Shown here: positions 1-19,860 of the stretch, piece by piece
Layout of the letters: each line of letters starts with the position of its first letter
Numbering within the stretch: the stretch's first letter is position 1
Translations under genes and position numbers: made by a program
Notes under the pieces: generated by a model
Told to the model about the DNA's origin: nothing
The model's database searches: none
The model's input: the letters and a program-made list of their open reading frames with translations, nothing else
Source of the DNA: Candidatus Entotheonellaceae bacterium
Lineage (GTDB): Bacteria > Tectomicrobia > Entotheonellia > Entotheonellales > Entotheonellaceae
NCBI GenBank assembly: GCA_965238075.1
Contig: OZ250173.1
Span: 1,184,001 to 1,248,000 of the forward strand
Reading direction: 5' to 3'
Length of the DNA stretch: 64,000 bases

Positions 1-1
1 G

Positions 2-184
2 CAGGACGGCAGGTCCATCGTCGGATTCGCGCCGGAGGTGGCCAACGTGTACGTGGCCACCACCCACAGCGGGGTGACGCTAACGCCGTTGATCGGCGCC
101 TTCGCAGCGATTGAAATCGTGCACGGGGCGCGGGTGGAGGTGCTGGCGCCGTTTCGGCCGGAGCGATTCGGAAGCCCGGTGTGA
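2..184 (+). CDS. FAD-dependent oxidoreductase (DAO/glycine oxidase family), C-terminal fragment cut by window edge
   Basis: Manual translation QDGRSIVGFAPEVANVYVATTHSGVTLTPLIG...LAPFRPERF* matches the DAO-family C-terminal pattern; not in ORF track. Confidence 0.75.
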   Translation, partial: QDGRSIVGFAPEVANVYVATTHSGVTLTPLIGAFAAIEIVHGARVEVLAPFRPERFGSPV

Positions 185-275
185 CGGGCCGTCTGGACCT
201 GATAGCCTGAGACGCTTATACTGGCGTCCCTTTTTTGCAGCCTCCCCCCACGCCCCAAACGGAGAACCCGACCCC

Positions 276-3875
<3,600 letters not shown>

Positions 3876-3960
3876 TCCGAGGCGTGGGGGCTGGCAACCA
3901 GGAATCTCCCCCGGCACCGTTGGGGAAGCGGATTGAAACATTCACACCGGAGGTAAGAAA

Positions 3961-4812
3961 ATGACCACAGAAGGCTACGCCCACCCCGAGCTTCTTTGCG
4001 ACACGGAGTGGCTGGGGGACCATCTGGACGACCCCAACGTGCGCGTCGTGGACTGCGACCAGTTCATGGAGTATCGCCGCGGGCATATCCGCAACGCCGC
4101 GGCCATCATGGCCCCGCATCACTACGTCAAAGAACTCGGCTATGAGCGGGCTCCGAAGACGCACCCGCTGGTCATGCCGCAGGAGCCCTTCACCGACCTG
4201 ATGATGCGCATGGGCATCGACGACAACACGACCGTCGTCACCTACGACCAGTCGGCCAGCCTGTACGCCACGCGCTTCTGGTGGGTACTGGGCCTCTACG
4301 GCCACACCAACGTCAAGGTGCTCAACGGCGGCTGGCGCAAGTGGTTCGACGAAGGGCGGCCGCTATCCATCGATTCGCCGCCGGCCCGCGACACCAAGTG
4401 GGCACCACAGCGCCAGCGGGACTGGGTCTGCACCCTTGAGGACGGGCTGGCCGCGGTTGGCGACCCAGACACCATCTTCCTGGACGTGCGCTCGCCGGCA
4501 GAATGGGACGGCAGCAACGACCGCGGCAACAGCCGGGCCGGACGTATCCCCGGCGCCGTTCACCTGGAGTGGACGGACCTGATGGACACCGACCGCGCCC
4601 GCAACTTCCTGCCCGCCGACAAGATGCGGGTCATCCTGGCGGAGCGTGGCGTGACGCCGGACAAGAGAATCATTACGTATTGACAAGGTGGCATCCGTGC
4701 GGCGCACGGAATGTTTGTGTTGAGGCTTCTCGGCTACCCGCATGTTCGCAATTACGACGGCTCCATGAACGAATGGGCCAACCGCGACGACACGCCGCTG
4801 GTGCTCGATTAA
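3961..4812 (+). CDS. Tandem-domain rhodanese/sulfurtransferase (SseA-like), probable selenoprotein (TGA 4681-4683 = Sec), 283 aa
   Basis: Rhodanese motifs GHI..A, A.RFWW.L, LNGG, DVRS, GRIPGA; frame continues past TGA as [12 protein letters not shown]...[16 protein letters not shown] to TAA 4810-4812. Confidence 0.85.
4684..4718 (+). promoter_or_regulatory. Putative bacterial SECIS hairpin
   Basis: TCCGTGC-GGC-GCACGGA stem-loop (4694-4710); G-leading loop starts 17 nt after the UGA; further pairing possible below the stem. Confidence 0.7.
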
Positions 4813-4845
4813 CGGACGTGTTTCGGAATCTTCTATGCGGATTAT

Positions 4846-4878
4846 GTGGGTCGGATTAGCCGCAGGCGTAATCCGACA
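4846..4878 (+). repeat. GTAG-type REP-like palindrome
   Basis: GTGGGTCGGATTAGCCGCAGGCGTAATCCGACA hairpin between convergent genes; related copy at 11207-11236. Confidence 0.65.
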
Positions 4879-4887
4879 TTGCGCTGA

Positions 4888-5487
4888 CTACACCCCACCG
4901 TCGAGGCAGCGTTGCCGCTCGGCGGCGGCGAAGGCTTGCAGCTTGGGAAAATAGTCGTGAAAGTCCTCGACAAAGTCGGGGAGTTGCGCGTCGAGGAGCG
5001 AAGCGAGCTTGGGGCTGAGATGGGTGATCCGCAAGCGGCTCAGGACGTACTGCAGCGCGCGGTCGCGCACGGCTGGCTCGGCATATCGCACTAGCAGGTC
5101 GGTGTCGATCATGCGCTCGATGAACGGCCTGCCTCTGTCGGGCACGTACGCATCGAACCGGCGCAGAGCAGTATAGACCTCGGCGGTGAAGTCGGTGAGG
5201 GCGACGCTGGCGTAGCGCGGCCACGTCAGCGCGAGGCAATGATCAGCCACGATGTCGAGCAGCACGGGCGCGGCCCGTCGCAACTCGACGTCGAAGCGCG
5301 CGATGCTGGGTTTCATGTCAGCCAAGCGGTTGGAAAACGCGTCGATGCGCCGGTGCAGGCGAATGCCGGCGCGCAGCTCGGTCGGCAGCGACTCGGGCAC
5401 CCTCCCCTTCACGAAATCGCCGAGCACCCCGCCGGCGATCCAACCCTGGCCGGGCCAGGCCAACAGGCAATGGGCGAGAAAGTTCAT
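4888..5487 (-). CDS. acpH: Acyl carrier protein phosphodiesterase
   Basis: MNFLAH...LGDFVKG...GIRLHRRIDAF...DHCLA motif series of the AcpH family. Confidence 0.85.
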   Translation of the reverse strand: MNFLAHCLLAWPGQGWIAGGVLGDFVKGRVPESLPTELRAGIRLHRRIDAFSNRLADMKPSIARFDVELRRAAPVLLDIVADHCLALTWPRYASVALTDFTAEVYTALRRFDAYVPDRGRPFIERMIDTDLLVRYAEPAVRDRALQYVLSRLRITHLSPKLASLLDAQLPDFVEDFHDYFPKLQAFAAAERQRCLDGGV

Positions 5488-5529
5488 ACGGTTAACGCCT
5501 GGGATTTGATTATCTTACCGGCGACTCCA

Positions 5530-6666
5530 CTACAAAGCCGGCCGGCTGGAAGTGCCGTAGCCGGTGAGTTCCACATAGCCCTTGCCCACCGGTAGGCCGT
5601 CCTGTAACAGCTTCACGGCCCCTTCCCAGTAATGTAGCGTGCCGATCAGGCTGCTGCGGTTCTCCTGGTCGGCCATCTCGACCACTATTTCCAGATCAAG
5701 CTGCTCCCGTGGAATGGTCAGGCGCCAGCGCGACGGGTAAACGCCTTCGGTGTGCGGGCTTTTCCAGCGTGCCTGACTGGTGACGGTGAAGGTTCCCCTG
5801 TCAAGGTACGTGGCGCTGCCGTCCGGGTACACGACCGTGCCGCTGGCGAAGTCGGTGGTGCCGTCCTCGCGCCGCAGGAGGAAGAGCATGACCTCTCGCC
5901 GGTCGTCGAGTTGCAGGCTGAACCAGTCCCAGCCGAGCTGGTGCGGCGCCAGAACGCTGGTGAAGAATTCCTTGTCCATCCAGCTTTCGCCGCTGACCTG
6001 CCACGTCTGGCCATCGAGGCTCAGGTGGCCGCTGGTTTGCAGCCGGGTGAAGCTGTAGTACAGGCTGGCGCCGCTGCCGGATTGCGTTTTGCGGCTGTAG
6101 CCGTTGGGGCCTTGGAAGACGAGAGGTTTGCCGGGCTGCGTGGACAGTGAGAAGGCCATACCCTGCGCGTCGTCGCGCATGTCGAAATCGAAGCCGCTGC
6201 CGTTCCACGATAGCCGCCATTGGCCGGGGGTGCCGGCCGGCGCTTGGCTCCAGGCGATCAGCGGCAAACTCGCTTCGCTCGCTCGCTGTGGCCAGTCCCC
6301 GAAGCCGCCCAACAGCGGGACGGCGCGGTAGATCACCTCGCTGAAGCGGTGCTCGTTGCGGTCCAAGTCGCTGACCGCGGCGTGGCCCATGATCAGGCCG
6401 CGGGCCGCCCAGGCGGAATCCGCATCGGGTGCCGTTGGCAGCACGCCGACGCGGAAGAACGTGAACTGGTAGCCGAAGCGCCGCCCGTCGTCGGCCTGCA
6501 AATGGCCGGTGAAGTACCACCATTCCGTTTTGTAACCCTCGTGCGCCCAGTGGTCGCGGGGGAACGACCAAACATAGTCCGGTTGCGCCGTTTTCCAGTC
6601 GTTGGCTGCCACCGGGTTCAAAACGCCGAGGATCAGCAGCGCGATGAGTACCCGTTTCATCGTCAA
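5530..6666 (-). CDS. Secreted lipocalin-like/AttH (carotenoid 1,2-hydratase-like) protein
   Basis: Signal peptide; FPRDH..H..Y.TEWWYFTG, YYSFTR, WMDKEF, GWDWF, YWEG, GYVELTGY motifs. Confidence 0.8.
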   Translation of the reverse strand: MTMKRVLIALLILGVLNPVAANDWKTAQPDYVWSFPRDHWAHEGYKTEWWYFTGHLQADDGRRFGYQFTFFRVGVLPTAPDADSAWAARGLIMGHAAVSDLDRNEHRFSEVIYRAVPLLGGFGDWPQRASEASLPLIAWSQAPAGTPGQWRLSWNGSGFDFDMRDDAQGMAFSLSTQPGKPLVFQGPNGYSRKTQSGSGASLYYSFTRLQTSGHLSLDGQTWQVSGESWMDKEFFTSVLAPHQLGWDWFSLQLDDRREVMLFLLRREDGTTDFASGTVVYPDGSATYLDRGTFTVTSQARWKSPHTEGVYPSRWRLTIPREQLDLEIVVEMADQENRSSLIGTLHYWEGAVKLLQDGLPVGKGYVELTGYGTSSRPAL

Positions 6667-6675
6667 TCCTCCTCG

Positions 6676-9243
6676 CTACAAATCGTCCCGGCTCAACGCC
6701 GCCGCGCCTCGGGCTACCAAGCTTTGTCCCGCCCACCCTACGCGGAACGCCGGATACAGGCTCGCCAGCACGGCAGCGCCGAGAATGGTCGCCGCCTGCT
6801 GAGCGATCAGGCCCCAATCCACGTACGGCTGAATCGTCCAGCCAAAATAGGCGCGGTTGATGACGTAGATCAGCAATCCGGCCAGCAGCACCCCGCCGAT
6901 GCTGCCCAGCGCCAGGCCCATGACGCCCATGCTCAGGCCCTTGCCCACGAAGACGCCGAAGAGTTGCCGCCCCCTGGCGCCGAGCGAGCGGCACAGCGCC
7001 AGTTCCGAGACCTGCTCGCGCGCCAGCACCAGCAGCATGAGGGCGATACCGCAGACGGCGATGAGCAGGCTCATGAACTGCAGCAGGCGTGTAATCGCGA
7101 ACGTCTGGTCGAAGATGGCCAGCACCTCCTCGCGCAGGCGGCGATTGCTCCGCACCTCGAGCGGCGCATTCGCTAGCGCGGCCTGCAGTTCCGCTACCAC
7201 AGCGGCCACGTCGGCGCCGGGGCGCAGGTACAGGGCGGTGCTGCTGACAGGACCCGGGCCGAACGCCTGCGCCATGGTGCGCAGGTCCATGGCCGCGGCG
7301 CCGTCGCCAGCGCTGTAATCGTAATACACGGCCGCGACGGGAAAGCGCTGCACGCCGGTGGGCGTGTGAATGGGCAGGACGTCGCCGACCCACACGCCGG
7401 CCTTGCGGGCCAGCGTCTCGCCGACGAAAACGCCGCGGCGCTCGCGCACCGCCTCGTACGGATTGGGCAGCGCGCCGGGAAGAAAGGGAAAGCGGCTGAG
7501 CCCTTGCGCCAAGCCCATCTCGACGCCGGAAATGGTGATGCGCCGGACGGTGGCCGTCTGCCAGTCGCCCGTGTAGCCGTGAAATCGCCGCAGGCGGTCG
7601 ACGGCCTGCACCGCTGGATGGCCCGTGACGCTGGCCATGACGTGCGGCTCCAGGCCGCCGTCGCTTCCGGTGCCACGCCACGAAGCCGGGGCGATGTACA
7701 CGTCTGCCTGGATCGAGGTGCCGATCCACACGCTGAGGGTCTGGCGAAAGCTGCCGATCATCAGGGTGATGCCGATCAGCATGCTGACCGCCACCGCCAG
7801 CGACGCCACCGCCACCGAGGTCGTCTGCAGCCGCACGCCGAGCCCCTTCAGGCTGTAGCCGAGACCGAAGCCCCGCACCCGAATACGGGCGCACAACTCG
7901 CGCACCAGCAGCGGGGTCAGCAGCGGCAGGGTGAGCAGCAGCACCACGGCGAGCACGAACCCGGCGTGCTGCCAATGGCGGCCGTGCAGACCGTACCAGG
8001 CGGCGGCCGTCAGCGGCAGCGCCACGCCGAGGGCGAACAGGCGCGGCGCCAGGCTGCCGACGGTTTCGTGCAGCGTGAAGGCCGACAGCAGCGCTCGGGT
8101 ATCGCGGCGCGCCATGTCGAGGGCGGGCAGCAGCGCCCCGACCACGGCGCCGCCGATGCCGATGCCGATGCCGAGGACGTACAGCCACGTCGTCATCTCC
8201 AGGCGGGCGATTTCTTCCAGCAAATAGAGATTGCTGAGCGTGGCGCTGACCACGCGCACGTTGGCCTGCGCCACGCCGTAGCCCAGCGGTAGGCCGAGGG
8301 CGGCGCCGAGGCCGCCCAGCAGGCCGACCTCGGTGATGATGAGTGCAAACACCTGGCGGCGCGTGGCCCCCAGCGAGCGCAGCAAGCCGAATTCCTCGCG
8401 CCGCCGCACCAGGGCCGCCTGGGTGCTACTGTAGACGAGAAACACGCCGACAAACAGGCTGATAAGGCTGAGTGCGGTGAGATTGAGCTGAAACGCCGAC
8501 AGCAAGCCCTTGGCCTGCGCTTCCCGCTGTTCCGGCGTCACCACCCGCACGGCCGGGCCGAGGCGCTCTTGCAGGCGCGCCCGCATGGCGGCGGTGTCGG
8601 CGCCGTCGATGAGTTTGACGTCGATCTGATGGATGGCGCCGGCATCGCCGAACAGACTCTGTGCCTGGGCGATGTCCATGACCGCCAGTTTGGGACTGGC
8701 CAGCGGATTGAGGGCGTGAAAATCGACCAACGCGCCGACCGTCAGATGCACCAGCCGGGAACCCCACGACACCGTGAAGGCGTCGCCGACGCGCCAGCCC
8801 ATTTGCTCGGCCAGGAGCGGTGTCAGGGCCACCCAACCCGGTTGGCTGAGGGCCGCCGCCGGGTCTCCCGGCTCGCCTTGCCAGGGGATGTCGACCGGCG
8901 TGAAGAAATCGACGCCGATGAGGTCGAGCATGCCGTCATCACGGCCGGATAAGGCCACGGCGGCACGCCACAGCGGCCAGGCCGCCTGCACGCCGGGCGT
9001 GGGCAGGACGCGCGGGTAGAGGTCTTCGGGGAAGCTCGGTGTGTAGCCGAGCACGCTGAGGTCGGCCTCGCCGCTGACCGCCTTGACGCTGCCCGCGAAG
9101 GCGGCGATGGCGTTGCGGTTGATGATCTGGATCGACAGCACCGCGGCCACGCCGAGGGCCACACCGAGAATGGTGAGCAGGTACAGGCTGCCGCCGGCTC
9201 GCAGGTGGGCCGCCATGGCGGTGACGAAATAGCGCCGCATCAT
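6676..9243 (-). CDS. FtsX/MacB-like ABC permease (AttF/G-like, duplicated)
   Basis: 855 aa, two MacB/FtsX-type halves, RREEFGLLRSLGAT motif. Confidence 0.8.
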   Translation of the reverse strand: MMRRYFVTAMAAHLRAGGSLYLLTILGVALGVAAVLSIQIINRNAIAAFAGSVKAVSGEADLSVLGYTPSFPEDLYPRVLPTPGVQAAWPLWRAAVALSGRDDGMLDLIGVDFFTPVDIPWQGEPGDPAAALSQPGWVALTPLLAEQMGWRVGDAFTVSWGSRLVHLTVGALVDFHALNPLASPKLAVMDIAQAQSLFGDAGAIHQIDVKLIDGADTAAMRARLQERLGPAVRVVTPEQREAQAKGLLSAFQLNLTALSLISLFVGVFLVYSSTQAALVRRREEFGLLRSLGATRRQVFALIITEVGLLGGLGAALGLPLGYGVAQANVRVVSATLSNLYLLEEIARLEMTTWLYVLGIGIGIGGAVVGALLPALDMARRDTRALLSAFTLHETVGSLAPRLFALGVALPLTAAAWYGLHGRHWQHAGFVLAVVLLLTLPLLTPLLVRELCARIRVRGFGLGYSLKGLGVRLQTTSVAVASLAVAVSMLIGITLMIGSFRQTLSVWIGTSIQADVYIAPASWRGTGSDGGLEPHVMASVTGHPAVQAVDRLRRFHGYTGDWQTATVRRITISGVEMGLAQGLSRFPFLPGALPNPYEAVRERRGVFVGETLARKAGVWVGDVLPIHTPTGVQRFPVAAVYYDYSAGDGAAAMDLRTMAQAFGPGPVSSTALYLRPGADVAAVVAELQAALANAPLEVRSNRRLREEVLAIFDQTFAITRLLQFMSLLIAVCGIALMLLVLAREQVSELALCRSLGARGRQLFGVFVGKGLSMGVMGLALGSIGGVLLAGLLIYVINRAYFGWTIQPYVDWGLIAQQAATILGAAVLASLYPAFRVGWAGQSLVARGAAALSRDDL

Positions 9244-9983
9244 GACGGGTGAGGGGCGGCGGGCGCCTCGGCCTCGGCGTGCGGACTCAGGACACCGCTG
9301 TGCAGACGCCAGACCTCGTCCGCCAGGGCAGACACCTCGCGGCTGTGGGTTACGAAGATGAGCGTGCCGCCTTCCTCGGCGACCAGCGACAGCATCAACT
9401 CCATGACGCGCCAGCCGTTCTCGTCGTCGAGGTTGCCGGTGGGCTCGTCGGCGAGCAGCAGGTGGGGTCGGCGCATCAGGGCGCGGCAGATGGCGACGCG
9501 CTGCATCTCGCCGCCGGAGAGCTTTTGCACCCGTTCGTGGGTGCGGTCACTCAGGCCGACACGGTCCAGAAGCTGCGCCACGCGGGGCTCGAACCGTCGC
9601 GGTTTGTCCCCGGCGATGAGGGAAGGCAGGGCGACGTTGTCATGCACCGACAAGTGAGGCATGAGGTAGAAGAATTGGAAGACGAGGCCGACGTGATCGC
9701 GCCGCAGGGTGGTGCGGGCGGTTTCGGACATTTCAGCTAGGGAGCGGCCCATGACCCGGACGTCGCCGCGGGTGGGGACGTCGATGCCGGCGGCGAGGTG
9801 CAGCAGGGTGGACTTGCCGCTGCCGCTGCGGCCCACGATGGCGATGCGGCGGCCCTCCGGCACCGCGAACGACAGGTTGTGCAGAACGTGCCGCTGCTCG
9901 CCGCTTGGGGCCGCGTAAGCCTTGCTCACAGCGTCGAACGCGAGGACTGCTGTCGAGTTGTCGGCCACGGGCTGGCTTTCCAT
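9240..9983 (-). CDS. ABC transporter ATP-binding protein (LolD/AttE-like)
   Basis: GRSGSGKS, LSGGEMQRVAI, LLADEPTGNLD. Confidence 0.9.
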   Translation of the reverse strand: MESQPVADNSTAVLAFDAVSKAYAAPSGEQRHVLHNLSFAVPEGRRIAIVGRSGSGKSTLLHLAAGIDVPTRGDVRVMGRSLAEMSETARTTLRRDHVGLVFQFFYLMPHLSVHDNVALPSLIAGDKPRRFEPRVAQLLDRVGLSDRTHERVQKLSGGEMQRVAICRALMRRPHLLLADEPTGNLDDENGWRVMELMLSLVAEEGGTLIFVTHSREVSALADEVWRLHSGVLSPHAEAEAPAAPHPS

Positions 9984-10001
9984 GCGAGGCGGGCGCTTGG
10001 G

Positions 10002-11057
10002 CTACGGGTAGCAGGCGTAGACAGTGTTCATCTGGTCGTGCGGATCGGCCACCTCAACGCGGGTGAATCCCGTCTCAGCCAGCATGCGGCGGGCCAACTG
10101 CTCGCCCCACACGGTGCCGAGCCCGGCGCCGTCGTGGGCCAGCGACACGGTCATGCAGTGCATCACGCTGACGGAGTAGAGCGCCGGCGCGACGGACATG
10201 CCGATGTTGTCGGCGAGATCGCTGGAGGCTTTGATGTCGAGCATCAGAAACGTGCCGTCGGGGGCCAGGGCGTCACGAATCTGGTTCAGCACGCCCCGGG
10301 GATCGACCTGATCGTGGATGGCGTCGAAGGCGGTAATCAGATCGAACTTCGGTTCCGTGGGGAAGTGGCGCACGTCCTGCACGTCGAAGCTGGCGTTGTT
10401 CAGGCCGCATGCCTGGGCCTCGTCGCGGGCGCTTTCGATGGCGTCCTGGCCGATGTCATAGCCGACGAAGGTGGAGGCCGGGAAGGCTTGCGCCATCAGG
10501 TTGGCGGCGTGGCCGGTGCCGCAACCGACGTCGCAGGCGCGCAGGCCGCGGCTGAGGCGCTCCGTGAGGCCGGGCACCGCCGGCAGGTAGTTGCTGAGCA
10601 GAAAGCGGTCGTGCCGGCGACGGCTACCGAGGTTCTGGAAGGTGGTGAAATCAGGCCGAAAGGCGGTATACGGCACGCCGCCGCCGTTCTTGAAGGCTTC
10701 GGTGACGCCTTGCACGTGTTTGGTGAACAGCACGGTGCGGTGCGCGAAGGCGGTCACGTTGTCGATGCCGGTGAGCAGGCCGGCGTGTTCAGGTGGCAGG
10801 GTGTAGGTGAGGGTGTCGGCATCGTATTCGAAGATGCCGCCGGTGACCATGGCGCCGAGCCATTCGCGCACGTAGCGTTCCTGCAGGCCGGCGCGCTCGG
10901 CGAGCTGCTGGCTGCTGGCCGAGCCCTGGGCGGCGGCGTCGAAGAGGCCGAGATCGTCGCCGATCTTCAGCATCAGGTTGAGCATGCCGCCGTTGTTAAT
11001 GCCCGCCAAGGTGTGCCGAAAGGTGCGTAGCTTTTGTTGATCGAGGTTCGCCGCCAT
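10002..11057 (-). CDS. SAM-dependent methyltransferase with N-terminal wHTH (Rv2258c-like)
   Basis: ERYVREWL helix, DVGCGTG SAM motif, FDAIHD, LGTVWGE. Confidence 0.85.
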   Translation of the reverse strand: MAANLDQQKLRTFRHTLAGINNGGMLNLMLKIGDDLGLFDAAAQGSASSQQLAERAGLQERYVREWLGAMVTGGIFEYDADTLTYTLPPEHAGLLTGIDNVTAFAHRTVLFTKHVQGVTEAFKNGGGVPYTAFRPDFTTFQNLGSRRRHDRFLLSNYLPAVPGLTERLSRGLRACDVGCGTGHAANLMAQAFPASTFVGYDIGQDAIESARDEAQACGLNNASFDVQDVRHFPTEPKFDLITAFDAIHDQVDPRGVLNQIRDALAPDGTFLMLDIKASSDLADNIGMSVAPALYSVSVMHCMTVSLAHDGAGLGTVWGEQLARRMLAETGFTRVEVADPHDQMNTVYACYP

Positions 11058-11206
11058 TGCCTGTCTCCCCTGGTTGTCGTGCCGCTCAAAGCCCCCTGGT
11101 CAAAGGGCGAGTATCGACGATTGCCGGGCGGAAGACAAGGCATAGTCACGCGCCTGGACCGTTGCACGGGGCGTCGGGTGCGGTGATAATGTCTTGCTGC
11201 TTGGCA

Positions 11207-11236
11207 TGCCGGATTACGCTGCGCGAATCTGACCTG
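11207..11236 (-). repeat. Degenerate GTAG-type REP-like palindrome
   Basis: TGCCGGATTACGCTGCGCGAATCTGACCTG resembles the reverse complement of 4846-4878. Confidence 0.5.
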
Positions 11237-11265
11237 TTTTCATATCCATACTAAGGAATTAAAAA

Positions 11266-12018
11266 ATGAGTGGTGGCTACGATATCGAGTTTTTCTGGGA
11301 TCCGGTGTGCCCCTTTGCGTGGATCACCTCGCGGTGGGTGGAGAAGGTGGCGGCGCAGACGGGTTACCGGGTGGATTGGCGTTTCATCTCGCTGCGGCTG
11401 CTGAACAAGCACAAGGACTATGCAACCGAGTTCCCACCCGATTATGAGCATTTCCACGGCGCCGGGCTGCGCATGCTGCGGGTCGCCGCCAAGGTACGGG
11501 CCGAGTTGGGCCGCGAGCACATGGGGCCGCTGTACGCGGCGTACGGCCAAGCCTATTGGGAGCAGGAGAAGGGCTCCGGCATGCGCCAGCGGCTGGGCAC
11601 CGCGGCGCACATCAGCGACACCCTGATCGCGGCCGGGCTGCCCACGACGTTCGCCGCCGCGGCTGACGACACCGGCTGGGACGCGGAGCTTGAGGCCGAG
11701 ACCGACCTGGCGCTCAGCCGCACCGGGCGCGACGTCGGCACCCCCATCATCACCTTCGAGCCGCCCGATGGGCTGTCGTTCTTCGGCCCGGTGATCTCGC
11801 GCGTGCCTAGCGATGCAGACGCCGTGACGCTGTGGAACGCCGTCATCACCCTGGCGCGGTTTCCCGGCTTTGCCGAACTCAAGCGCAGCCTGCGCGAAGT
11901 GCCGCAACTACGCCTGCTGGGCGCCCTCAGCGATGCCCCGGAACAGGAGGACTGGCAAGGCGGCCATCGTGCCGACGCGCTGCCGGGCGCGCAGGATGAG
12001 GGTAAAGACAAGGAGTGA
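11266..12018 (+). CDS. DsbA-like thioredoxin-fold protein (Rv2466c-like)
   Basis: FWDPVCPFAWITSRW, DVGTP, FFGPVISRVP, FAELKRS. Confidence 0.8.
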   Translation: MSGGYDIEFFWDPVCPFAWITSRWVEKVAAQTGYRVDWRFISLRLLNKHKDYATEFPPDYEHFHGAGLRMLRVAAKVRAELGREHMGPLYAAYGQAYWEQEKGSGMRQRLGTAAHISDTLIAAGLPTTFAAAADDTGWDAELEAETDLALSRTGRDVGTPIITFEPPDGLSFFGPVISRVPSDADAVTLWNAVITLARFPGFAELKRSLREVPQLRLLGALSDAPEQEDWQGGHRADALPGAQDEGKDKE

Positions 12019-12022
12019 CGCC

Positions 12023-12661
12023 ATGGCCCTGTCGACGAGCGACATGACGGTTGCTGATCTGCTGGAGCGCTTCGGCCCGATCCCTGCCGCGCGCATTCGC
12101 ACCGATCCGCCGCCGGGCACCGCCACCGAGCAGGACGTGATCGACATCGAGAACCGGGAGTCCCGTCTCTGCGAGCTGGTGGACGGCGTGTTGGTGGAGA
12201 AAACTGTGGGTTATTACGAATCGTATCTGACTGTGCGGCTTATCTTGTTGATCGGTGCGTTCGTGGAACAACACAATCTCGGTTGCGTAACTGGCGCAGA
12301 CGGTATGATGCGCCTTGCGCCGGGCCTGGTGCGTATCCCCGACGTTTCGTTCGTCTCGTGGAATCAGTTGCCTGGGCGTCGTGTTCCACGAGTGCCGATC
12401 GCCGAACTGGCGCCGGATTTGGCAGTGGAGGTGATCAGTCCAAGTAACACAGCCCGGGAAATGGAACGAAAACTCCAGGACTTCTTGACCGCTCGCGTAC
12501 GGCTGGTGTGGTATGTGCTGCCGGTGCCTCAGGAGGTCCACGTGTACACCGCTGAGCGGCATGACGTTTTGACCATTGACCAGGAGCTTTCCGGCGGCGA
12601 CGTGCTGCCGGGGTTTGCGCTGCCGCTGCGGCGGCTGTTTGAAGAATCGGAGGATAGGTAA
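12023..12661 (+). CDS. Uma2 family (PD-(D/E)XK) endonuclease-like protein
   Basis: ELVDGVLVEK, RIPDVSFV, PDLAVEVISPSNT, GGDVLPGF. Confidence 0.85.
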   Translation: MALSTSDMTVADLLERFGPIPAARIRTDPPPGTATEQDVIDIENRESRLCELVDGVLVEKTVGYYESYLTVRLILLIGAFVEQHNLGCVTGADGMMRLAPGLVRIPDVSFVSWNQLPGRRVPRVPIAELAPDLAVEVISPSNTAREMERKLQDFLTARVRLVWYVLPVPQEVHVYTAERHDVLTIDQELSGGDVLPGFALPLRRLFEESEDR

Positions 12662-13518
12662 TGCAGGCCGAAACGCTGGGTGTTTGGTACGGCGCCGACA
12701 AGCTGGAACCGGCGCAGTGGATCGACTTCGTGACGACGGTGGAGCGGCTGGGCTACGATACGCAGTGGTATTCCGAGGCGATGGGGTTCGAATCCATGGC
12801 GTTCGGGAGCTTTCTGCTGGCTAACACGCAGCGGCTGAAAATTGGCAGCTCGATTGCCAACATCTATGCCCGCGACGTTGTGGCCTCGCGCAACGGGCTG
12901 AAAACGCTGGGGCGCATTTCGAATGACCGCTACGTGCTGGGTCTGGGCGTCTCGCACGTGCCGCTGGTGGAGCGCTTTCGCGGCCACACGTATGGCAAAC
13001 CGGTGGCGGCCATGCGCCATTACCTCGAACAGATGCGCGCCGAGCAGCCCGACGCCGATACCTGGCCGGTGGTTATCGCGGCTCTGGGGCCTCGCATGCT
13101 GGAACTGGCTGCCGAACTGACCCAGGGCGCCATTCCCTACAACGTGACGCCCGAGCATACCGCGCAGGCACGCTCGATCCTCGGCCCGGACAAATGGCTG
13201 GCCGTGGAACAGAAATTCTGCCTGGAGAGCGACCCCGCCAAGGCGCTGGAACTGGCACGTACCGAATTGTCGCGCTACATGGTGCTGCCCAACTATACCA
13301 ACAACTGGCGGCGCCTCGGCTTCAGCGGATCCGACCTGCAGGACGGCAGCAACGCCCGCTTTCTGAACGCCATGGTCGTGTGGGGTGACGAGGCCGCCGT
13401 CCGCGCCCGTATCCGGGAGCACTTCGACGCCGGCGCCACGCAGGTCTGCCTCCAACCCGTCCATCCCCAGGGCGACCTTGCCGGCGCCAAGGCGATGCTC
13501 ACCGCGCTGGCGCCGTAA
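12661..13518 (+). CDS. LLM-class (probably F420-dependent) oxidoreductase
   Basis: IANIYARD, LGLGVSH, AALGPRML, HFDAGATQVCLQ. Confidence 0.8.
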   Translation: MQAETLGVWYGADKLEPAQWIDFVTTVERLGYDTQWYSEAMGFESMAFGSFLLANTQRLKIGSSIANIYARDVVASRNGLKTLGRISNDRYVLGLGVSHVPLVERFRGHTYGKPVAAMRHYLEQMRAEQPDADTWPVVIAALGPRMLELAAELTQGAIPYNVTPEHTAQARSILGPDKWLAVEQKFCLESDPAKALELARTELSRYMVLPNYTNNWRRLGFSGSDLQDGSNARFLNAMVVWGDEAAVRARIREHFDAGATQVCLQPVHPQGDLAGAKAMLTALAP

Positions 13519-14032
13519 TAGTCATTATCCGATACGCTTAAAAATGCTGTGCGATCTGTTGGCCGTGTGTGGCCGAATCTTCGTCGGCCACTCGCCCTTT
13601 TCCGACTCCGCCAGCCAGGCGTCGCTGCTCGGCGTTTCCGGCGAGTCGATGTGATACACGGCGGCATACCTGGCCATGCCCTCGGCATTGCTCGACTCCA
13701 GCCGATACCGGTCGCAGCCGTGCACCCCCGGCGCTTTCAGGATATTGGGCACGTGCTCGGTGTCGTATACCCGGTTGAACTCGTCCTCCATCTCCGCCGG
13801 AATGTCCATCTGCACGAGATAAACGTAGTCCGCCATAGCGCCTCCATGATCTGACCTGAAAGGTTTGATTTGCTGGGAGTAAACGGGCACTGAGGTCGGT
13901 ATGGTAGCACCCGCCCGACATGGCAACAACAGCGCGAGGGGCAAGGTTCAGCGTCAATGTCCAGGAGCGTAACTGTCAGAATTGCCGCCAGGCGTTGATC
14001 CGTTCTCCCAGTGGGACGAGGAACTCGGCAAG
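13334..14032. repeat. Direct repeat copy 1 (LLM 3' end + small gene + ATPase C-terminal tip)
   Basis: Near-identical to 18970-19511 up to ~13871, then diverged but alignable to ~14032/19703. Confidence 0.9.
13525..13836 (-). CDS. Small dimeric alpha/beta-barrel protein (EthD/DUF4286-like), copy 1
   Basis: MADYVYLVQMDIPAEMEDEFNRVYDTEHVP.ILK.PG; GGAGG RBS. Confidence 0.75.
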   Translation of the reverse strand: MADYVYLVQMDIPAEMEDEFNRVYDTEHVPNILKAPGVHGCDRYRLESSNAEGMARYAAVYHIDSPETPSSDAWLAESEKGEWPTKIRPHTANRSHSIFKRIG

Positions 14033-15198
14033 CTCGGGCTGGCTGTCCTGGGTTTCCCGACGCCCGGCGATTCTGGCAATTCCAGGGCCGGTTTGACTCA
14101 ACTCTGCGGCGAATGCCTCGAGCGCGGCCTTTGAGTGATCGCCTTGCCGAACCATGCCTGTCATCATCTGATCAATGTCGCGCATTTTCCGGTCCATGTC
14201 CTGTGGCGACAGGCCTAGCAGCGGCGCGTACACGTCTCTCCGACGCCTCAGCGTTTGCCAGATCCAGCCTTCTGGCGGCTCGTTACCCAGCAGGAACAAC
14301 GGTTGCACGCTGCGATCGTCGCGGTCGAGGAAGATTCTCGCCTCCGGTGGCACGCTGTCCAGCACCACAGGACTGTGCGAAGCAACGATGATCTGCAGTT
14401 GTTGCCGCAGTGCGATGCGCTGCAACTCCAGCATGACTTGCTGTTGCGTGTAAGGGTGCAGACCCGTATCCACCTCATCAATCAGGATCAGAGCGTCATG
14501 GAGGCCTGAAACATCCTTTGAGATACGCAGAATCGCCCGTTCCCCGGAGGACATGTGGAACTCCGAGTAGCGCGTGTCCTGGTTTGTCTCCACCTCGGCA
14601 AACAGCAGGTCACGGCTCTGGGCGCTGATGAAGGAGAGGTTGCGGTACCGCTGGCGTAGGATATGGCGGGCGAAGACCAAAAGGTTGGGGGTCAGCGTAT
14701 CCGCCTGGTACTGCTTACGACCAAGCTGCAGGATGCCTCGAACCTCGGACGGATTGGCGAGATTGGCCAGGGTGCGCAGGTATACGTTGCGTTCCGGTTG
14801 CGTGCCGCCCTTGCGGCCCATGAAGCTGCGATTCCATGATTTGTTGCGCTTCCAGGCCAATGGACAGGCGCTCGTTATTGTGCAGGTAGTAAAAGGCCAG
14901 TTCCGTTTGCGCTGCGGTATCGGAGAGCGAGCCTCCTTGCCGATCTGTGAAATTGGGAAACAGGCTGCTCCCGCGATCCCCTGCCCGGTACGCGCAGGCA
15001 CAAGCGAACAGCACCGTGGATTTGCCGCAGCCGTTTGGCCCCGCCAGCACGGATACCGGATAGCCGAACGGCACACGCAAGTACCCTGATGCCCCGGAAA
15101 TTCCGAATGTGGACTTCCTGTAGCATGTCGCGACGCTGCGGCATGCTGGCACGCATGGCCTCCCATACCTTCTGCAGTTCTCTGACGATCAGTGACAT
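13976..15198 (-). pseudogene. ABC/AAA ATPase (OLD/AbiEii-like) pseudogene
   Basis: Three frames join: IRNFRGIR | LAGPNGCGKST (Walker A) | MSSGE...LIDEVDTGLHP...ASHS; frameshifts near 15085 and 14860; probable internal deletion after ARIFLDRD. Confidence 0.8.
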
Positions 15199-15385
15199 GC
15201 TTGGCATCCTCCCCTACCGGGCCGGCGTGCGTAAGCCTCGTCCCCGTAAGCAGCATGCGACCCGCGCTTATGGCCTGATTCAAGGATTGGGAAGGCGTTC
15301 GCTTGATGGTGAGGATCCTAAACCGAAATTCTCCTGACTTGGACTTGGGAGAGCATCCGCCGAGACGAATTGAGGAAGACCGCCT

Positions 15386-15475
15386 GACTTCATCCCCGCC
15401 TGTGCGGGGAACACGCATCGAAGACTGGGAAAAGGCATTGGGAACGCGGTTCATCCCCGCCTGTGCGGGGAACAC
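15386..15475 (-). CRISPR. Type I-E mini array: 2 repeats, 1 spacer
   Basis: 29-bp repeat GTGTTCCCCGCACAGGCGGGGATGAACCG (minus strand, 15447-15475); second copy with 3 terminal mismatches (15386-15414); 32-nt spacer 15415-15446; cas3 nearby. Confidence 0.9.
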
Positions 15476-15535
15476 TCGGCGACGGACGGGCAGCCAAGCG
15501 GCGTTGATCAGATTGAAGACGTCGGGCTCACACAT
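15476..15535 (-). pseudogene. casA: 5' stub (20 codons) of cas8e/casA (cse1)
   Basis: MCEPDVFNLINAAWLPVRRR resembles the CasA N-terminus (FNL...W.PVR); downstream of and co-oriented with cas3; abuts CRISPR repeat. Confidence 0.7.
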
Positions 15536-15673
15536 GACGCGTCTCGGTGGACACAGTACGCTGGACAGGTGGCAAGGCCGTCCGTCGATCTTGCCTCAAC
15601 AGGGAAAATCCGACAAACTCCCGAACGAGTCAAGCCCTATATACTGCACTAGACGATTCGTTGGGGGGATGAC

Positions 15674-15937
15674 ATGAATCTGTACCGGTTACGATCCGTT
15701 CTGCGGGAACCGTCGGACGAAACTGAGGGCAAGTACCTGGCCGAGATACCCGATTTGCCCGGTTGCCGGGCGTGGGGCGACACCGCTGCACAGGCTTTGG
15801 AAAGCCTGCAATGCGTTGCGGCAGCGTTCATCGAATCATACCGCGATCGCGGCGATCCTCTTCCGCCTCAAGTGGCCGCCGCTGTCGTTGACGCCAGCGA
15901 GCATCAAGGTTTCAGTGAAGTCATGGTCGCGGTTTGA
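15674..15937 (+). CDS. hicB: HicB-family antitoxin
   Basis: YLAEIPDLPGCRAWGDT...ALE motif. Confidence 0.8.
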   Translation: MNLYRLRSVLREPSDETEGKYLAEIPDLPGCRAWGDTAAQALESLQCVAAAFIESYRDRGDPLPPQVAAAVVDASEHQGFSEVMVAV

Positions 15938-16143
15938 GATACAGCGAACTCACACGCAAGCTGCATCGACTCGGATGCGTCCTGGACAGACGCGCTCGTG
16001 GCGATCACGAGATCTGGATTCGTCCATCGACGGGCGGCAGAACGACCATTCCAAATTGGGGCGGCCGTGAACTGAAAACAGGAACCGTCAGAGCGATCCT
16101 ACGGGACTTGGGTGTCACCCGCCAGGAATTCGACCGTGCATGA
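15934..16143 (+). CDS. hicA: HicA-family mRNA interferase toxin
   Basis: 69 aa; RGDHEIW (conserved His), TTIP, ELKTGTVRAILRDLG; overlaps hicB stop. Confidence 0.8.
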   Translation: MRYSELTRKLHRLGCVLDRRARGDHEIWIRPSTGGRTTIPNWGGRELKTGTVRAILRDLGVTRQEFDRA

Positions 16144-16201
16144 ACGGCTCCTTGAAGCTGCCGACGGGAAGTAGTCTTCCGGGCATGGCTTGCCTTACCC
16201 C

Positions 16202-18925
16202 TCATCGTTCTTTCTTGTCGGTCGTCAAACCGCGCTGCGGACTATAGCTGAGCCGGACGTCCGTCGGCGTCTCGCCGCCCGACATTGCCGTTCCAGACCA
16301 GGTTTGATCCCCGGCCTCGGACTCCTCAAGCACCACCAGAATCTTGTCCGCATCGAACCGCGTCCAGTCCATCTTTGCCGCGCGGACAGCATCGGCATGT
16401 TCAGACGGCACGGCTTCGCCACCGACACGTCGCGCAGAAATGTTCACCTCGCTGAGCCGCCATGCCCGCCACGGCTCGCTCGGTTCGACATGGGGCGCGT
16501 AAGGCTCGATACGGTCACCGCGGACCCGTGCGAGCCGTAGCGTGACTTGCAGGTCGTCAACGAGCCGGGTTGGCGTGCGTACGTCGCTGTCCCAGGCACC
16601 GCCGTCTCTCACATAGCCCTTGGTAAGATCAAGTACGTTGGTGTTGGCCACCCCACGCTCGGCGCCCGCTCTGCCCTCTGCATCGAAGAAGCTGCCTTGC
16701 AATGCCTCTGGGACGGCCAGTTCGGCATCATCGCCGTATACGGCCTCAATGAGCGCCCGCAAACCGCCAGGGCTTTCGATGCTGCCGGCGTCAGCCAACG
16801 TTTTAGCCGTCAGCCAGAGGCGGGCGTGATCCTTGTAAACATACGCGGCGCGTGGAAAAGCCCGGCTGAACCACTTTTCGTCCGCGTCGGCGATGGGTTC
16901 CGGTCCCACCACGAGCAATTCCGGCTGCCCTTCACGTTCGGGGCGGTGGTGTCGCCACAGCCTGCCCGCACGTTGGATCAGCAGGTCAATCGGCGCGAGA
17001 TCAGTGATCAGGGCATCAAAGTCCAGATCCAGCGATTGCTCGACCACCTGCGTGGCGATCAGCACCTTGCCGGCTCGCTGCGTGGAGGTGCTGAGCTTAC
17101 CGAACGTCGCAACCACCCATTTCTCGATTCGCAGGCGGTCGACAAGCGCGAAGCGAGCGTGGAAGACCTCCGCAGCGAACCCTCTGGCCGTCAACGCGGC
17201 ATGGGCTTCGAGAGTGTCATCGACCGTGTTGCGAATGTAGAGCACGGCTTGGCCGCTGTGAGTTGCCTGTTCGACTGCGGTCAGCGCCTCCTCCGGGGTG
17301 CCGAGGAATCGCATCGGAAGCCTGCGCGCCCGCCCGGACTGTCCAAGAACCTTCATGGATGTGCGGACGTTGGCTCCACAGACCGTGGCCAATGGGTAGT
17401 CCATGTCGCTGATGACCGATCTGTGTGTTATCTCTTCGTTTCCCAACCCTTTCGAGAAAGCGCTGGCCAGCCGTTTACGGACCGAAAGGGGAAGAGTGGC
17501 CGACAGCAGGATCGCACAGCCACCCAGCCCTGCCTGGAATTCGAGCAGCCGCTCGATCTCGCGCTGCATATAGGCATCGTAAGCATGCACCTCATCGAGA
17601 ATGAGAACACGGCGCATGAGGCCCAACAGCCGCAGCGATTGGTGCCGACTGGGCAGAATCGACAACAATGCCTGATCCACCGTGCCGGCGCCCGCATCGG
17701 CCAGAAAGGCGCGCCGCCTGTCGTCGGCAATCCAGGCCGCGCAGGCTGCCGAGGCAGTCGTTTCAGAACCCTCCCCCCGACTCCCGGTTTGTGAATAGGG
17801 AGTCTCGTTGCGCCCGGCCGGCAGCACCGCCGACCGGAAACCGTCGTGCATGTCGCGCCCGCCGTGAGCCAGGGCAATCGAGGGGAAGGCGCCTGCTGAG
17901 AACAACTGCCGATACGCGGCGGCGAGCCGATCGAACATGGCGTTGGCCGTGGCCATGGTGGGCAGTGCCACATACAGACCGTCTGCCTGGCCGGACGCCA
18001 TCAGTCTGTGGGCGAGCATCAGGGCCGCCTCGGTCTTGCCGCTGCCCGTTTCGTCTTCGATCATGAACAGCGCCGCACCGTCCGGCAGTTCGACGCATTT
18101 AGCCCAGTCCTGCATCGGAGTTGGGGTCGCATCCGCCCCAATCAAGGCGCCGTAATCGAGGTGGTTGTTACTTTCGGCCGGCAGGACGCCCGACGCTTCA
18201 ACGGCGCTCTTCGCTTGTTCGCGGGCATGGTTCCAGTATGCCTGGAGGTCTTGAATCGGTTCGCAGTACGGAAACCATTCCTGCCTGGAGCCGATCCAGT
18301 CCGCCAGCACAGCAAAGCCGGCGAGGGCGAAAGACGCGCGCCGTACGCCTTCGCGTTCGAGCGGCGGCAACGCCTGCGGCAAGGCGAGCAGGTCGCGAGT
18401 CTGTTGGACGAACATATCGGCAGCCTCAATGCCTGCCTTGCCGAAGTCGGGCCGTAAGGTGACACGGTTCTCGCCGATAACCGGCTGCGGTGGGGCACCG
18501 TGATGCCCGACGACCGCCGAGACCAAGAGTCGCCAGACACGGTGGCTCGGTCCGCTAGGCAAATGGAAGAGGCCGTCATCTGCATCGAATAGGCGCAGCC
18601 CGCCAGCGCCGTGGTCGTAGCGGTCTGGAACAGAGGCGGGATCGTCACCGAGACAGCCGGGGTACAGTGCCGGCTCCTTTGCCTGAAATTTCTTGGCGAA
18701 CTTGCCGATGTCGTGCAGGCACAGAAGGAAGCAAAGGACGGGAATGAAGTCTTCACTGGGTAGGCCCAGTAAGTCGAGCAGGCTTTGTCGCAGGCCACGA
18801 TGCCGGGTCATCAGTGCCTCGCCGACCGCGGCGACATCGAGGCAATGGTACGGCAATGGGTGCCATTGGGGGCGGCGGTCGGGGTCGAGAGGCCGCGCCT
18901 TGCCCCAGAACGAGAGCTCATTCAT
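16202..18925 (-). CDS. cas3: CRISPR-associated helicase/nuclease Cas3 (type I-E)
   Basis: HD domain (LPYHCLDVAAV, LHDIGK), TGSGKTEAA, GTVDQ, DEVH, SAT, TQVVEQSLDLDFD, QRAGRLWRH; 907 aa, uninterrupted. Confidence 0.95.
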   Translation of the reverse strand: MNELSFWGKARPLDPDRRPQWHPLPYHCLDVAAVGEALMTRHRGLRQSLLDLLGLPSEDFIPVLCFLLCLHDIGKFAKKFQAKEPALYPGCLGDDPASVPDRYDHGAGGLRLFDADDGLFHLPSGPSHRVWRLLVSAVVGHHGAPPQPVIGENRVTLRPDFGKAGIEAADMFVQQTRDLLALPQALPPLEREGVRRASFALAGFAVLADWIGSRQEWFPYCEPIQDLQAYWNHAREQAKSAVEASGVLPAESNNHLDYGALIGADATPTPMQDWAKCVELPDGAALFMIEDETGSGKTEAALMLAHRLMASGQADGLYVALPTMATANAMFDRLAAAYRQLFSAGAFPSIALAHGGRDMHDGFRSAVLPAGRNETPYSQTGSRGEGSETTASAACAAWIADDRRRAFLADAGAGTVDQALLSILPSRHQSLRLLGLMRRVLILDEVHAYDAYMQREIERLLEFQAGLGGCAILLSATLPLSVRKRLASAFSKGLGNEEITHRSVISDMDYPLATVCGANVRTSMKVLGQSGRARRLPMRFLGTPEEALTAVEQATHSGQAVLYIRNTVDDTLEAHAALTARGFAAEVFHARFALVDRLRIEKWVVATFGKLSTSTQRAGKVLIATQVVEQSLDLDFDALITDLAPIDLLIQRAGRLWRHHRPEREGQPELLVVGPEPIADADEKWFSRAFPRAAYVYKDHARLWLTAKTLADAGSIESPGGLRALIEAVYGDDAELAVPEALQGSFFDAEGRAGAERGVANTNVLDLTKGYVRDGGAWDSDVRTPTRLVDDLQVTLRLARVRGDRIEPYAPHVEPSEPWRAWRLSEVNISARRVGGEAVPSEHADAVRAAKMDWTRFDADKILVVLEESEAGDQTWSGTAMSGGETPTDVRLSYSPQRGLTTDKKER

Positions 18926-18969
18926 GGCCGTGTCACCCCTCAATTCGGCGCTTGCAGCGGAAATTGGAC

Positions 18970-19158
18970 ACCTCCAGGACGGCGGCAATGCCCGCTTCCT
19001 GAACGCCATGGTCGTGTGGGGCGACGAGGCCGCCGTTCGTTCGCGCCCGCGTCCGGGAGCACTTTGACGCCGGCGCCACCCAGGTCTGCCTCCAACCCGT
19101 CCATCCCCAAGGCGACCTTGCCGGCGCCAAGACGATGCTCACCGCCCTGGCGCCGTAG
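18970..19158 (+). pseudogene. 3' fragment of the LLM oxidoreductase (duplicated, frameshifted)
   Basis: Matches 13334-13518 but lacks the 5' part and has a TTCG duplication. Confidence 0.85.
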
Positions 19159-19164
19159 CAAGCC

Positions 19165-19476
19165 TTACCCGATGCGCTTGAAAATACTGTGTGACCGGTT
19201 GGTCGCGTGTGGCCGAATCTTCGTCGGCCACTCGCCCTTTTCCGACTCCGCCAGCCAGGCGTCGCTGCTCGGCGTTTCCGGCGAGTCGATGTGATACACG
19301 GCGGCATACCTGGCCATGCCCTCGGCATTGCTCGACTCCAGCCGATACCGGTCGCAGCCGTGCACCCCCGGCGCTTTCAGGATATTGGGCACGTGCTCGG
19401 TGTCGTATACCCGGTTGAACTCGGCCTCCATCTCCGCCGGAATATCCATCTGCACGAGATAAACGTAGTCCGCCAT
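19165..19476 (-). CDS. Small EthD/DUF4286-like protein, copy 2
   Basis: 103 aa, 3 residues different from copy 1. Confidence 0.75.
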   Translation of the reverse strand: MADYVYLVQMDIPAEMEAEFNRVYDTEHVPNILKAPGVHGCDRYRLESSNAEGMARYAAVYHIDSPETPSSDAWLAESEKGEWPTKIRPHATNRSHSIFKRIG

Positions 19477-19646
19477 AGCGCCTCCATGATCTGACCTGAA
19501 AGGTTTGATTTACTTGCAATAAACGGGGATGTCCTCGAACGCAGTCCAGCCCTGCGCGCCCGAGGGTCGGCATGGTAACACCCGTCCGGTACGGCAACAA
19601 ACAGGATAAGGCGCGTCATCAGCGCCAATATGCAGAAATGTAATCG

Positions 19647-19860
19647 TCAGGGTTGCCGCCAAGCGTTGATCTGCTCTTCCATCGGAACGAGGAACCCGGC
19701 AAGTACGAAGAGGAAATCCTGCAGCGTGCCGAACCTGCCAAGCATCCGAATGTGGGCCGGAAACTCTGCCTGCCCGGTGTTCCTGCCGATGACGAAGTAT
19801 TCATGCCAAAGGTCCAAGTGGGCGTTCAACACGTCCAGGACGCCGAGGATTACCCCGCCG
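19647..19860 (-). pseudogene. Second remnant of the ATPase gene
   Basis: Ends LAGFLVPMEEQINAWRQP* versus copy 1 LAEFLVPLGERINAWRQF*; preceded by a segment absent from copy 1. Confidence 0.65.

Follow-up and report, generated by a model that had tools for sequence, protein, structure and literature searches.

A cas8e start joined flush to a CRISPR repeat: a probable deletion remnant of a type I-E CRISPR-Cas locus in a Candidatus Entotheonellaceae bacterium

The DNA analysed here, a stretch of 64,000 nucleotides from a Candidatus Entotheonellaceae bacterium (contig OZ250173.1; hereafter the window), contains what is very probably a dead remnant of a CRISPR-Cas system of type I-E, produced by a chromosomal deletion and deprived of the functions of the system. 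Read on the minus strand, codon 20 of a cas8e stub ends at 15476 and a CRISPR repeat begins at 15475, with no nucleotide between them. The deletion took cas8e from codon 21 onwards, cse2, cas7, cas5, cas6e, cas1, cas2, the leader and all spacers but one. Taken as a whole, our best explanation of the locus (a dead type I-E remnant, formed by deletion, with a join made by illegitimate recombination) is probable; for the mechanism by itself we lean, with moderate confidence, towards ordinary RecA-independent illegitimate recombination at short homologies. We compared the locus with five relatives of the same genus (G001 to G005), whose Cas3 proteins are 82-92% identical to that of the window. The parts of the locus are listed below in window coordinates.

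16202..19009, minus strand: cas3, 935 aa, intact and orphan; Pfam Cas3_HD (E 2.1e-40) and Cas3-like_C_2 (E 2.5e-31)
15934..16143, plus strand: hicA; Pfam HicA_toxin (E 9.7e-18)
15674..15937, plus strand: hicB; Pfam HicB_lk_antitox (E 1e-07)
15536..15673: intergenic DNA, 138 nt, between the divergent starts of hicB and cas8e; about 92% identical to G005 and collinear with it; the presumed site of the cas8e promoter
15476..15535, minus strand: cas8e (casA/cse1) stub of 20 codons; the ATG at 15535 opens MCEPDVFNLINAAWLPVRRR
15447..15475, minus strand: CRISPR repeat 1, the consensus type I-E 29-mer GTGTTCCCCGCACAGGCGGGGATGAACCG
15415..15446, minus strand: sole spacer, 32 nt
15386..15414, minus strand: terminal repeat GTGTTCCCCGCACAGGCGGGGATGAAGTC, with GTC in place of CCG as its last 3 nt
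14910..15385, minus strand: trailer, orthologous to the G005 trailer by blastn
13976..15207, minus strand: pseudogene of a defence-type AAA_21 ATPase (PtuA/AriA/HEC-04-like), in three frames

The two adjoining genes with HicB and HicA domains (Pfam) form a hicBA toxin-antitoxin pair between cas3 and cas8e. G005 and G001 have this pair as well; in G002 and G003 the alignment covers hicB alone, and in G004 it covers almost nothing.

The stub was identified by comparison with the relatives. Searched alone against Pfam it gave no match up to E 10, 20 amino acids being too short for the profile. In each of the five relatives, however, 17-18 of its 20 residues are identical to the N-terminus of Cas8e, and the gene after cas3 in all five begins MSEP(A/N/-)VFNLI(N/Y)A(A/T)WLPVRRR and extends past codon 20, continuing with ...SGAVEHI.... 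The 558-aa Cas8e of G005 matches PF09481 (Cse1) with E 2.8e-106, the profile starting at residue 9, and a tblastn search with residues 1-21 of this protein found the stub (E 2.7e-04) as the sole match in the window's genome. The stub carries the alleles Cys2, Asp5 and T at 15482. DNA identity to G005 and G001 is 91-93% from cas3 to exactly 15476/15477, where it stops, and it resumes at the repeat or the trailer; the stub-repeat join is therefore not a matter of chance. The assignment of the stub to cas8e in the preliminary description of this DNA is confirmed by the shared residues and by the collinearity of the DNA from cas3 to 15476.

On the other side of the join, a repeat search found an array of two repeat copies at 61-nt spacing with a single spacer. 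The repeat carries a 6-bp palindromic stem (CCCCGC/GCGGGG) and is the consensus array repeat in all four relatives for which downstream DNA was retrieved (G005, G001, G002 and G004). Window positions 15475..14910 aligned by blastn with positions 12620..13201 of the G005 locus (L015) at 90.5% identity, and the GTC-ending terminal repeat and 60 nt of trailer are common to both; the presence of the same trailer in G005 agrees with the earlier reading of the retained repeat-spacer-repeat unit as the trailer end of an array. Preceding the first repeat, the same four relatives have a conserved AT-rich leader (...AAAGTCTTTATTTTTTAG...GAGAAGA), and this leader was not found at the window locus. The retained spacer is unlike the last spacer of G005, and none of the relatives' 165 spacers is held in common with the window. 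It had no second match anywhere in the window's genome and no exact match in genome_contigs, metagenome_contigs or viral_contigs, these searches returning neither a sister strain nor a target. The trailer pattern had no match in metagenome_contigs and the junction pattern none in genome_contigs, a set that possibly excludes the window's own genome records. An Rfam search of 15000..16300 found no CRISPR family; its one match, to nadA, stayed below threshold with 17.7 bits, the gathering score being 37.5.

The extent of the loss was read from the relatives. Four of them share the locus order cas3-cas8e-cse2-cas7-cas5-cas6e-cas1-cas2-leader-array. In G005, Pfam confirmed each of the seven cas products that follow cas3 ahead of the array; in G001, G002 and G004 the order was read from ORF order, size and N-terminal sequence. 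Their arrays hold 35 (G005), 4 (G001), 73 (G002) and 58 (G004) repeats. Window positions 19636..15476 correspond to positions 1..4158 of the G005 locus at 92.6% identity, and both flanks of the junction are collinear with G005. In G005 coordinates the missing interval is 4159..12619, or 8.46 kb, when the join is placed at the position homologous in G005; if instead the first repeat was the place of the join, the array having shrunk in a separate event, it is 4159..10208, a loss of at least 6.05 kb.

The genome that holds the window is a single 3.35-Mb contig, and the CRISPR repeat is present in just two copies in the whole of it. Profile searches of this genome with PF09481 (Cse1) and PF01867 (Cas1) gave no match. 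A tblastn search with nine G005 proteins (eight Cas proteins and the ORF inside the G005 array) found cas3 and a 21-aa stub only, with no match in the window's genome to the G005 Cse2, Cas7, Cas5, Cas6e, Cas1 or Cas2 queries. No other CRISPR-like array was found there by a crude scan for 18-mers recurring at 45-90 nt, which elsewhere in the genome picked up protein-coding or tandem repeats only. The preliminary description had called the locus a type I-E deletion remnant and had given the lost gene order, and both points hold, the order being that seen in the relatives and the two flanks being collinear with G005. The loss of the leader, cas1 and cas2 is likewise borne out, by the absence of the leader and by empty searches with PF01867 and with G005 Cas1 and Cas2. 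Its proposal of one deletion is the most economical reading, though an equally good fit is given by two steps, a deletion reaching to the leader-repeat edge and a collapse of the array.

The reality of the join was assessed in public sequencing runs. A sequence search returned 24 runs, mostly sponge-associated metagenomes, with X1 containing all of the sampled words and X2 containing 93% of them. Four of the 24 runs (X1, X2, X3 and X8) were examined, in the form of Logan contigs (k=31) and not of raw reads. The junction is spanned by an exact 63-nt contig over 15450..15512 in X1, at depth 110, and by an exact 64-nt contig over 15449..15512 in X2, at depth 17.6. Exact 90-nt contigs over 15385..15474 had depths of 107.9 (X1) and 25.7 (X2), and the flank depths in X1 were 148.6 and 154.4. 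In each junction contig the cas8e part is 37 nt, more than the length of a spacer, and it is joined to 26-27 nt of repeat. The stub-repeat join is present in the DNA of these two samples and is not an assembler's join. Read support over 15476, named in the preliminary description as a check, was obtained in part: exact junction contigs exist in X1 and X2, but they fall short of the bridging rule, by which both sides need 31 letters. Since the repeat, 29 nt long, is present in multiple copies in the sample and k is 31, no contig is able to tie the stub to this particular spacer; that stub, repeat, spacer and trailer lie together on one molecule is taken from the assembly.

It is highly improbable that the join is an assembly artefact, that is, a false join or a repeat collapse in an organism whose locus is really intact. 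The shortness of the junction contigs speaks for an artefact, as does the presence, in all four examined runs, of contigs that run from 15476 into intact cas8e and of contigs with a leader-repeat join. However, collapse at a repeat would give a repeat-repeat join and not one between cas8e codon 20 and a repeat; the exact junction contigs come from two samples, at the depths given above, with a cas8e part that exceeds a spacer; and the single contig of the genome has no second copy of any Cascade gene. The intact-cas8e contig of X2, moreover, belongs to another lineage. It differs from the window by one letter in 15476..15512, and the contig break point implies that this letter is 15482, a position with T in the window, G003, G002 and G004 and C in G005 and G001. 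On account of this one-letter difference, placed at 15482, the intact-cas8e contigs are read as related lineages living alongside, and not as the window's strain.

Two further readings of these data were considered and rejected. Polymorphism of the deletion within one strain might be seen in the X1 junction depth of 108-110 against flanks of 149-154, but Logan contigs simplify variants; the one-letter difference of the X2 intact contig also argues against it, and the X1 contigs break at the same place. Derivation of the T at 15482 from a lost spacer was rejected, since the intact cas8e genes of G003, G002 and G004 have the same T. The one RNA-library run, X8, yielded contigs of other variants only at this site and is uninformative on transcription of the stub.

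Judged from its gene content, the remnant is predicted to be unable to acquire spacers, to process crRNA or to interfere: with no Cas6e, no crRNA could be made, and Cascade is missing. The retained cas3 has no stop codons and no sign of decay. Among 916 aligned codons, the changes unique to the window cas3 are 8 non-synonymous and 16 synonymous; the same counts (non-synonymous:synonymous) in the five relatives are 7:20, 13:25, 15:29, 33:43 and 12:10. These numbers are compatible with a fairly recent date for the loss as well as with constraint that has continued; they are too small for a choice between them. The preliminary description proposed that the oldest spacer would now be under casA transcription signals. 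A consensus scan of 15150..16250 for sigma-70-like promoters found no site, against a mean of 0.3 in shuffled sequence, and two terminator-like sites, against a shuffle mean of 1.0, were found in the same interval, of which one is made up of repeat 1 together with the spacer; both scans are uninformative. The locus offers a base-by-base record of how a bacterium of sponge-associated metagenomes lost its adaptive immunity and kept an intact cas3.

By the mechanism that we favour, the join would have been made by end joining or by template switching on a few shared bases. The flush appearance of the junction would then be either a coincidence or the result of shared bases at the 3' end of the repeat's lost neighbour, for which there are two candidates: a spacer ending in ...CGCCGA, and the leader, which shares its final dinucleotide, GA, with the stub. 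Palindromes promote template switching beside them, and the palindromic repeat may have favoured a template switch at the join. One X1 spacer (depth 22.1) has as its last 7 nt TCGCCGA, identical to the last 7 nt of the stub (joint stretch 15482 to 15447), another X1 spacer shares 6 nt with the stub end, spacer 53 of G002 has the same terminal 7 nt as the stub, and the leaders of all four relatives end in GA, as does the stub. In the window's GC-rich genome TCGCCGA has a frequency of 3.3e-4 per position, from which about 0.12 chance ends are expected among the approximately 350 repeat-bearing contigs/spacers of X1 and 0.05 among the relatives' 165 spacers. We regard the 7-nt match of the X1 spacer, G002 spacer 53 and the leader GA as weak leads to a short homology. 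There is no microhomology on the repeat side, as intact cas8e goes on with A (AGCGG or AGTGG) and the repeat starts with G. The prior for a flush join at the 5' edge of a repeat is approximately 1 in 61 per array period, which makes pure coincidence an uncomfortable explanation of it.

The preliminary description had offered Cas1-Cas2 integration chemistry as a source of the precise edge. In type I-E integration, the chemistry links an incoming 3' end with the repeat strand at its 5' end. It is unlikely that this integrase made the join. It could have done so by inserting the 3'-OH end of the cas8e coding strand at the 5' edge of the repeat; in a second version, a normal integration intermediate, nicked where leader and repeat meet, broke and became joined to DNA upstream, the locus thereby deleting its own genes, and the array fell to one spacer in a separate step. 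The join starts flush at the repeat's first base, with no base shared on the repeat side, and its polarity fits, an incoming 3' end being placed onto the 5' end of a repeat strand; a join of this position and polarity is necessary for integration and not specific to it. In G005, a foreign piece of 430 nt occupies exactly the place of a spacer, flush at both edges, and may be a further irregular integration. On the other hand, every model leads to the same product; integrase-made deletions were not reported in any of the titles and abstract openings covered by a non-exhaustive literature search; and the X8 contig in which a repeat edge meets the ATPase, with 5 extra letters in between, looks like untidy end joining. 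Join polarity is the sole argument that integration chemistry has of its own, and the suggestion has found no support. The broader claim that a CRISPR integrase destroyed its own locus, either by capturing the cas8e end at a repeat edge or through an intermediate that broke at the leader-repeat edge, we consider quite unlikely. Were the integrase reading true, repeat edges would be enzyme-made hot spots for the loss of CRISPR-Cas systems, and the G005 insert in the spacer slot would be a second trace of irregular integration in the genus.

Distinctly improbable is a homologous recombination of cas8e with a spacer that the locus had taken from its own cas8e codons 10-20, with autoimmunity also selecting for the loss. 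An identity of 32 nt ending at the 3' end of a spacer predicts a join exactly flush with the next repeat, and a reason for selection would come with it: self-targeting spacers, and loss of the cas operon as an escape from them, are described in the part of PMC6990116 considered here. The sequence speaks against it in several respects. The type I-E PAM is AAG, but the protospacer that this model needs is preceded by TGA if it has 32 nt, and by CTG if it has 33 nt; in the relatives, no spacer out of 165 has a match of 20 nt or more in the 5' region of cas8e; and the prior for any one spacer to derive from this exact 32-nt stretch is very small. Escape from self-targeting, also put forward in the preliminary description, found no support, as the retained spacer matches only itself in the genome and the relatives' spacers do not match the 5' end of cas8e. 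The product alone cannot separate the mechanism models.

The window resembles the type I-E system of Escherichia coli K-12 in the domain make-up of cas3, in its 29-nt repeat with a 6-bp palindrome and a CCG end, in its 32-nt spacer length and in the gene order shared by its relatives. It differs from the K-12 type in keeping just cas3, 20 codons of cas8e and one repeat-spacer-repeat unit, and in having hicBA between cas3 and cas8e. Loss of cas operons and of spacers is a known outcome in the portion of PMC6990116 consulted, and the window is like the self-targeting escapes described there in that effector and adaptation genes are deleted and parts of the locus are kept, but unlike them in that no self-targeting spacer is seen. 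The escapes described in that portion proceed by repeat-repeat recombination, IS elements or deletions around the target, and no cas gene flush to a repeat appears among them.

Off-target integration of spacers by Cas1-Cas2 would explain how a sequence other than the leader comes to abut a repeat edge exactly. Such integration adds a spacer and duplicates a pseudo-repeat, and it is not known to cause kilobase deletions. The window is unlike it also in that its repeats are canonical and lie at an orthologous trailer. No title in the non-exhaustive literature search describes a cas gene flush to a repeat, and we make no claim that such a case is absent from the literature. Losses of this kind are known, and the remnant adds a further case, whose unusual detail is the tidy junction. 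The flush junction matters only if such joins are commoner than chance would make them, in which case the integrase or the repeat hairpin would be implicated.

The remnant is part of a defence island whose decay takes several forms and is seen in several lineages. Sister species keep the full system, and other lineages have been damaged independently, as seen in the nonsense codon of G001 cas8e and in the differing deletions of the ATPase gene. In G001 cas8e, TGA replaces Trp codon 17 (L016, approximately 4470-4480), and the array (L016 10529-10740) has 4 repeats, the last of which is perfect and abuts a truncated ORF and not the trailer of G005 and the window; the G001 locus is an independent decay of the same locus. 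The C-terminal part of the ATPase pseudogene matches Pfam AAA_21 (E 7e-13) and PADLOC HEC-04 (E 1.9e-20), and its PADLOC likenesses comprise HEC-04, PtuA, AriA and ATPase-Toprim-like. Its frame changes near 15083 and 14859, where the X3 and X8 contigs are without a letter at 15083, and X3 also at 14859. G005 lacks window positions 14910..14312 in the ATPase (a 602-nt skip also found in X8), and in G001 the whole stretch from the trailer onwards to 14314 is missing. The X8 contig mentioned above joins the 3' edge of a repeat (15447) to the ATPase at 14969 with 5 other letters between them, its shorter side being 29 letters and its depth 28.4; it is a further array-edge rearrangement in a related strain.

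An open frame of 519 aa (13976-15535, minus strand) runs from the cas8e ATG through both repeats and the trailer into the C-terminal half of the unrelated ATPase; it is an annotation trap and not a gene. A direct repeat of approximately 735 bp (18970-19703 and 13334-14032; 85.8% identity, with a 554-bp core at 93%) brackets the island from cas3 to the ATPase. Each copy holds a DUF4286 ORF (19165..19476 and 13525..13944, both on the minus strand), and the same bracketing is present in relatives. The bracketing repeat could serve whole-island excision, or could mark the arrival of the island.

Insertions were also observed at the relatives' loci. The 430-nt piece of G005 lies near the trailer end of the array (L015 12190-12619), exactly in a spacer slot and with full repeats flush on both sides. 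Within it lies an ORF of 128 aa whose start resembles a signal peptide and which had no match in Pfam or PHROGs, and no other copy of the piece was found in G005 or in the four other genus genomes searched. G002 (L017 9806-11062, minus strand) and G004 (L018, same position) each have an extra gene of 418-433 aa between cas6e and cas1; the G002 copy has matches to Schlafen AlbA_2 and HATPase_c_4 and shows PADLOC similarity to pAgo-associated proteins.
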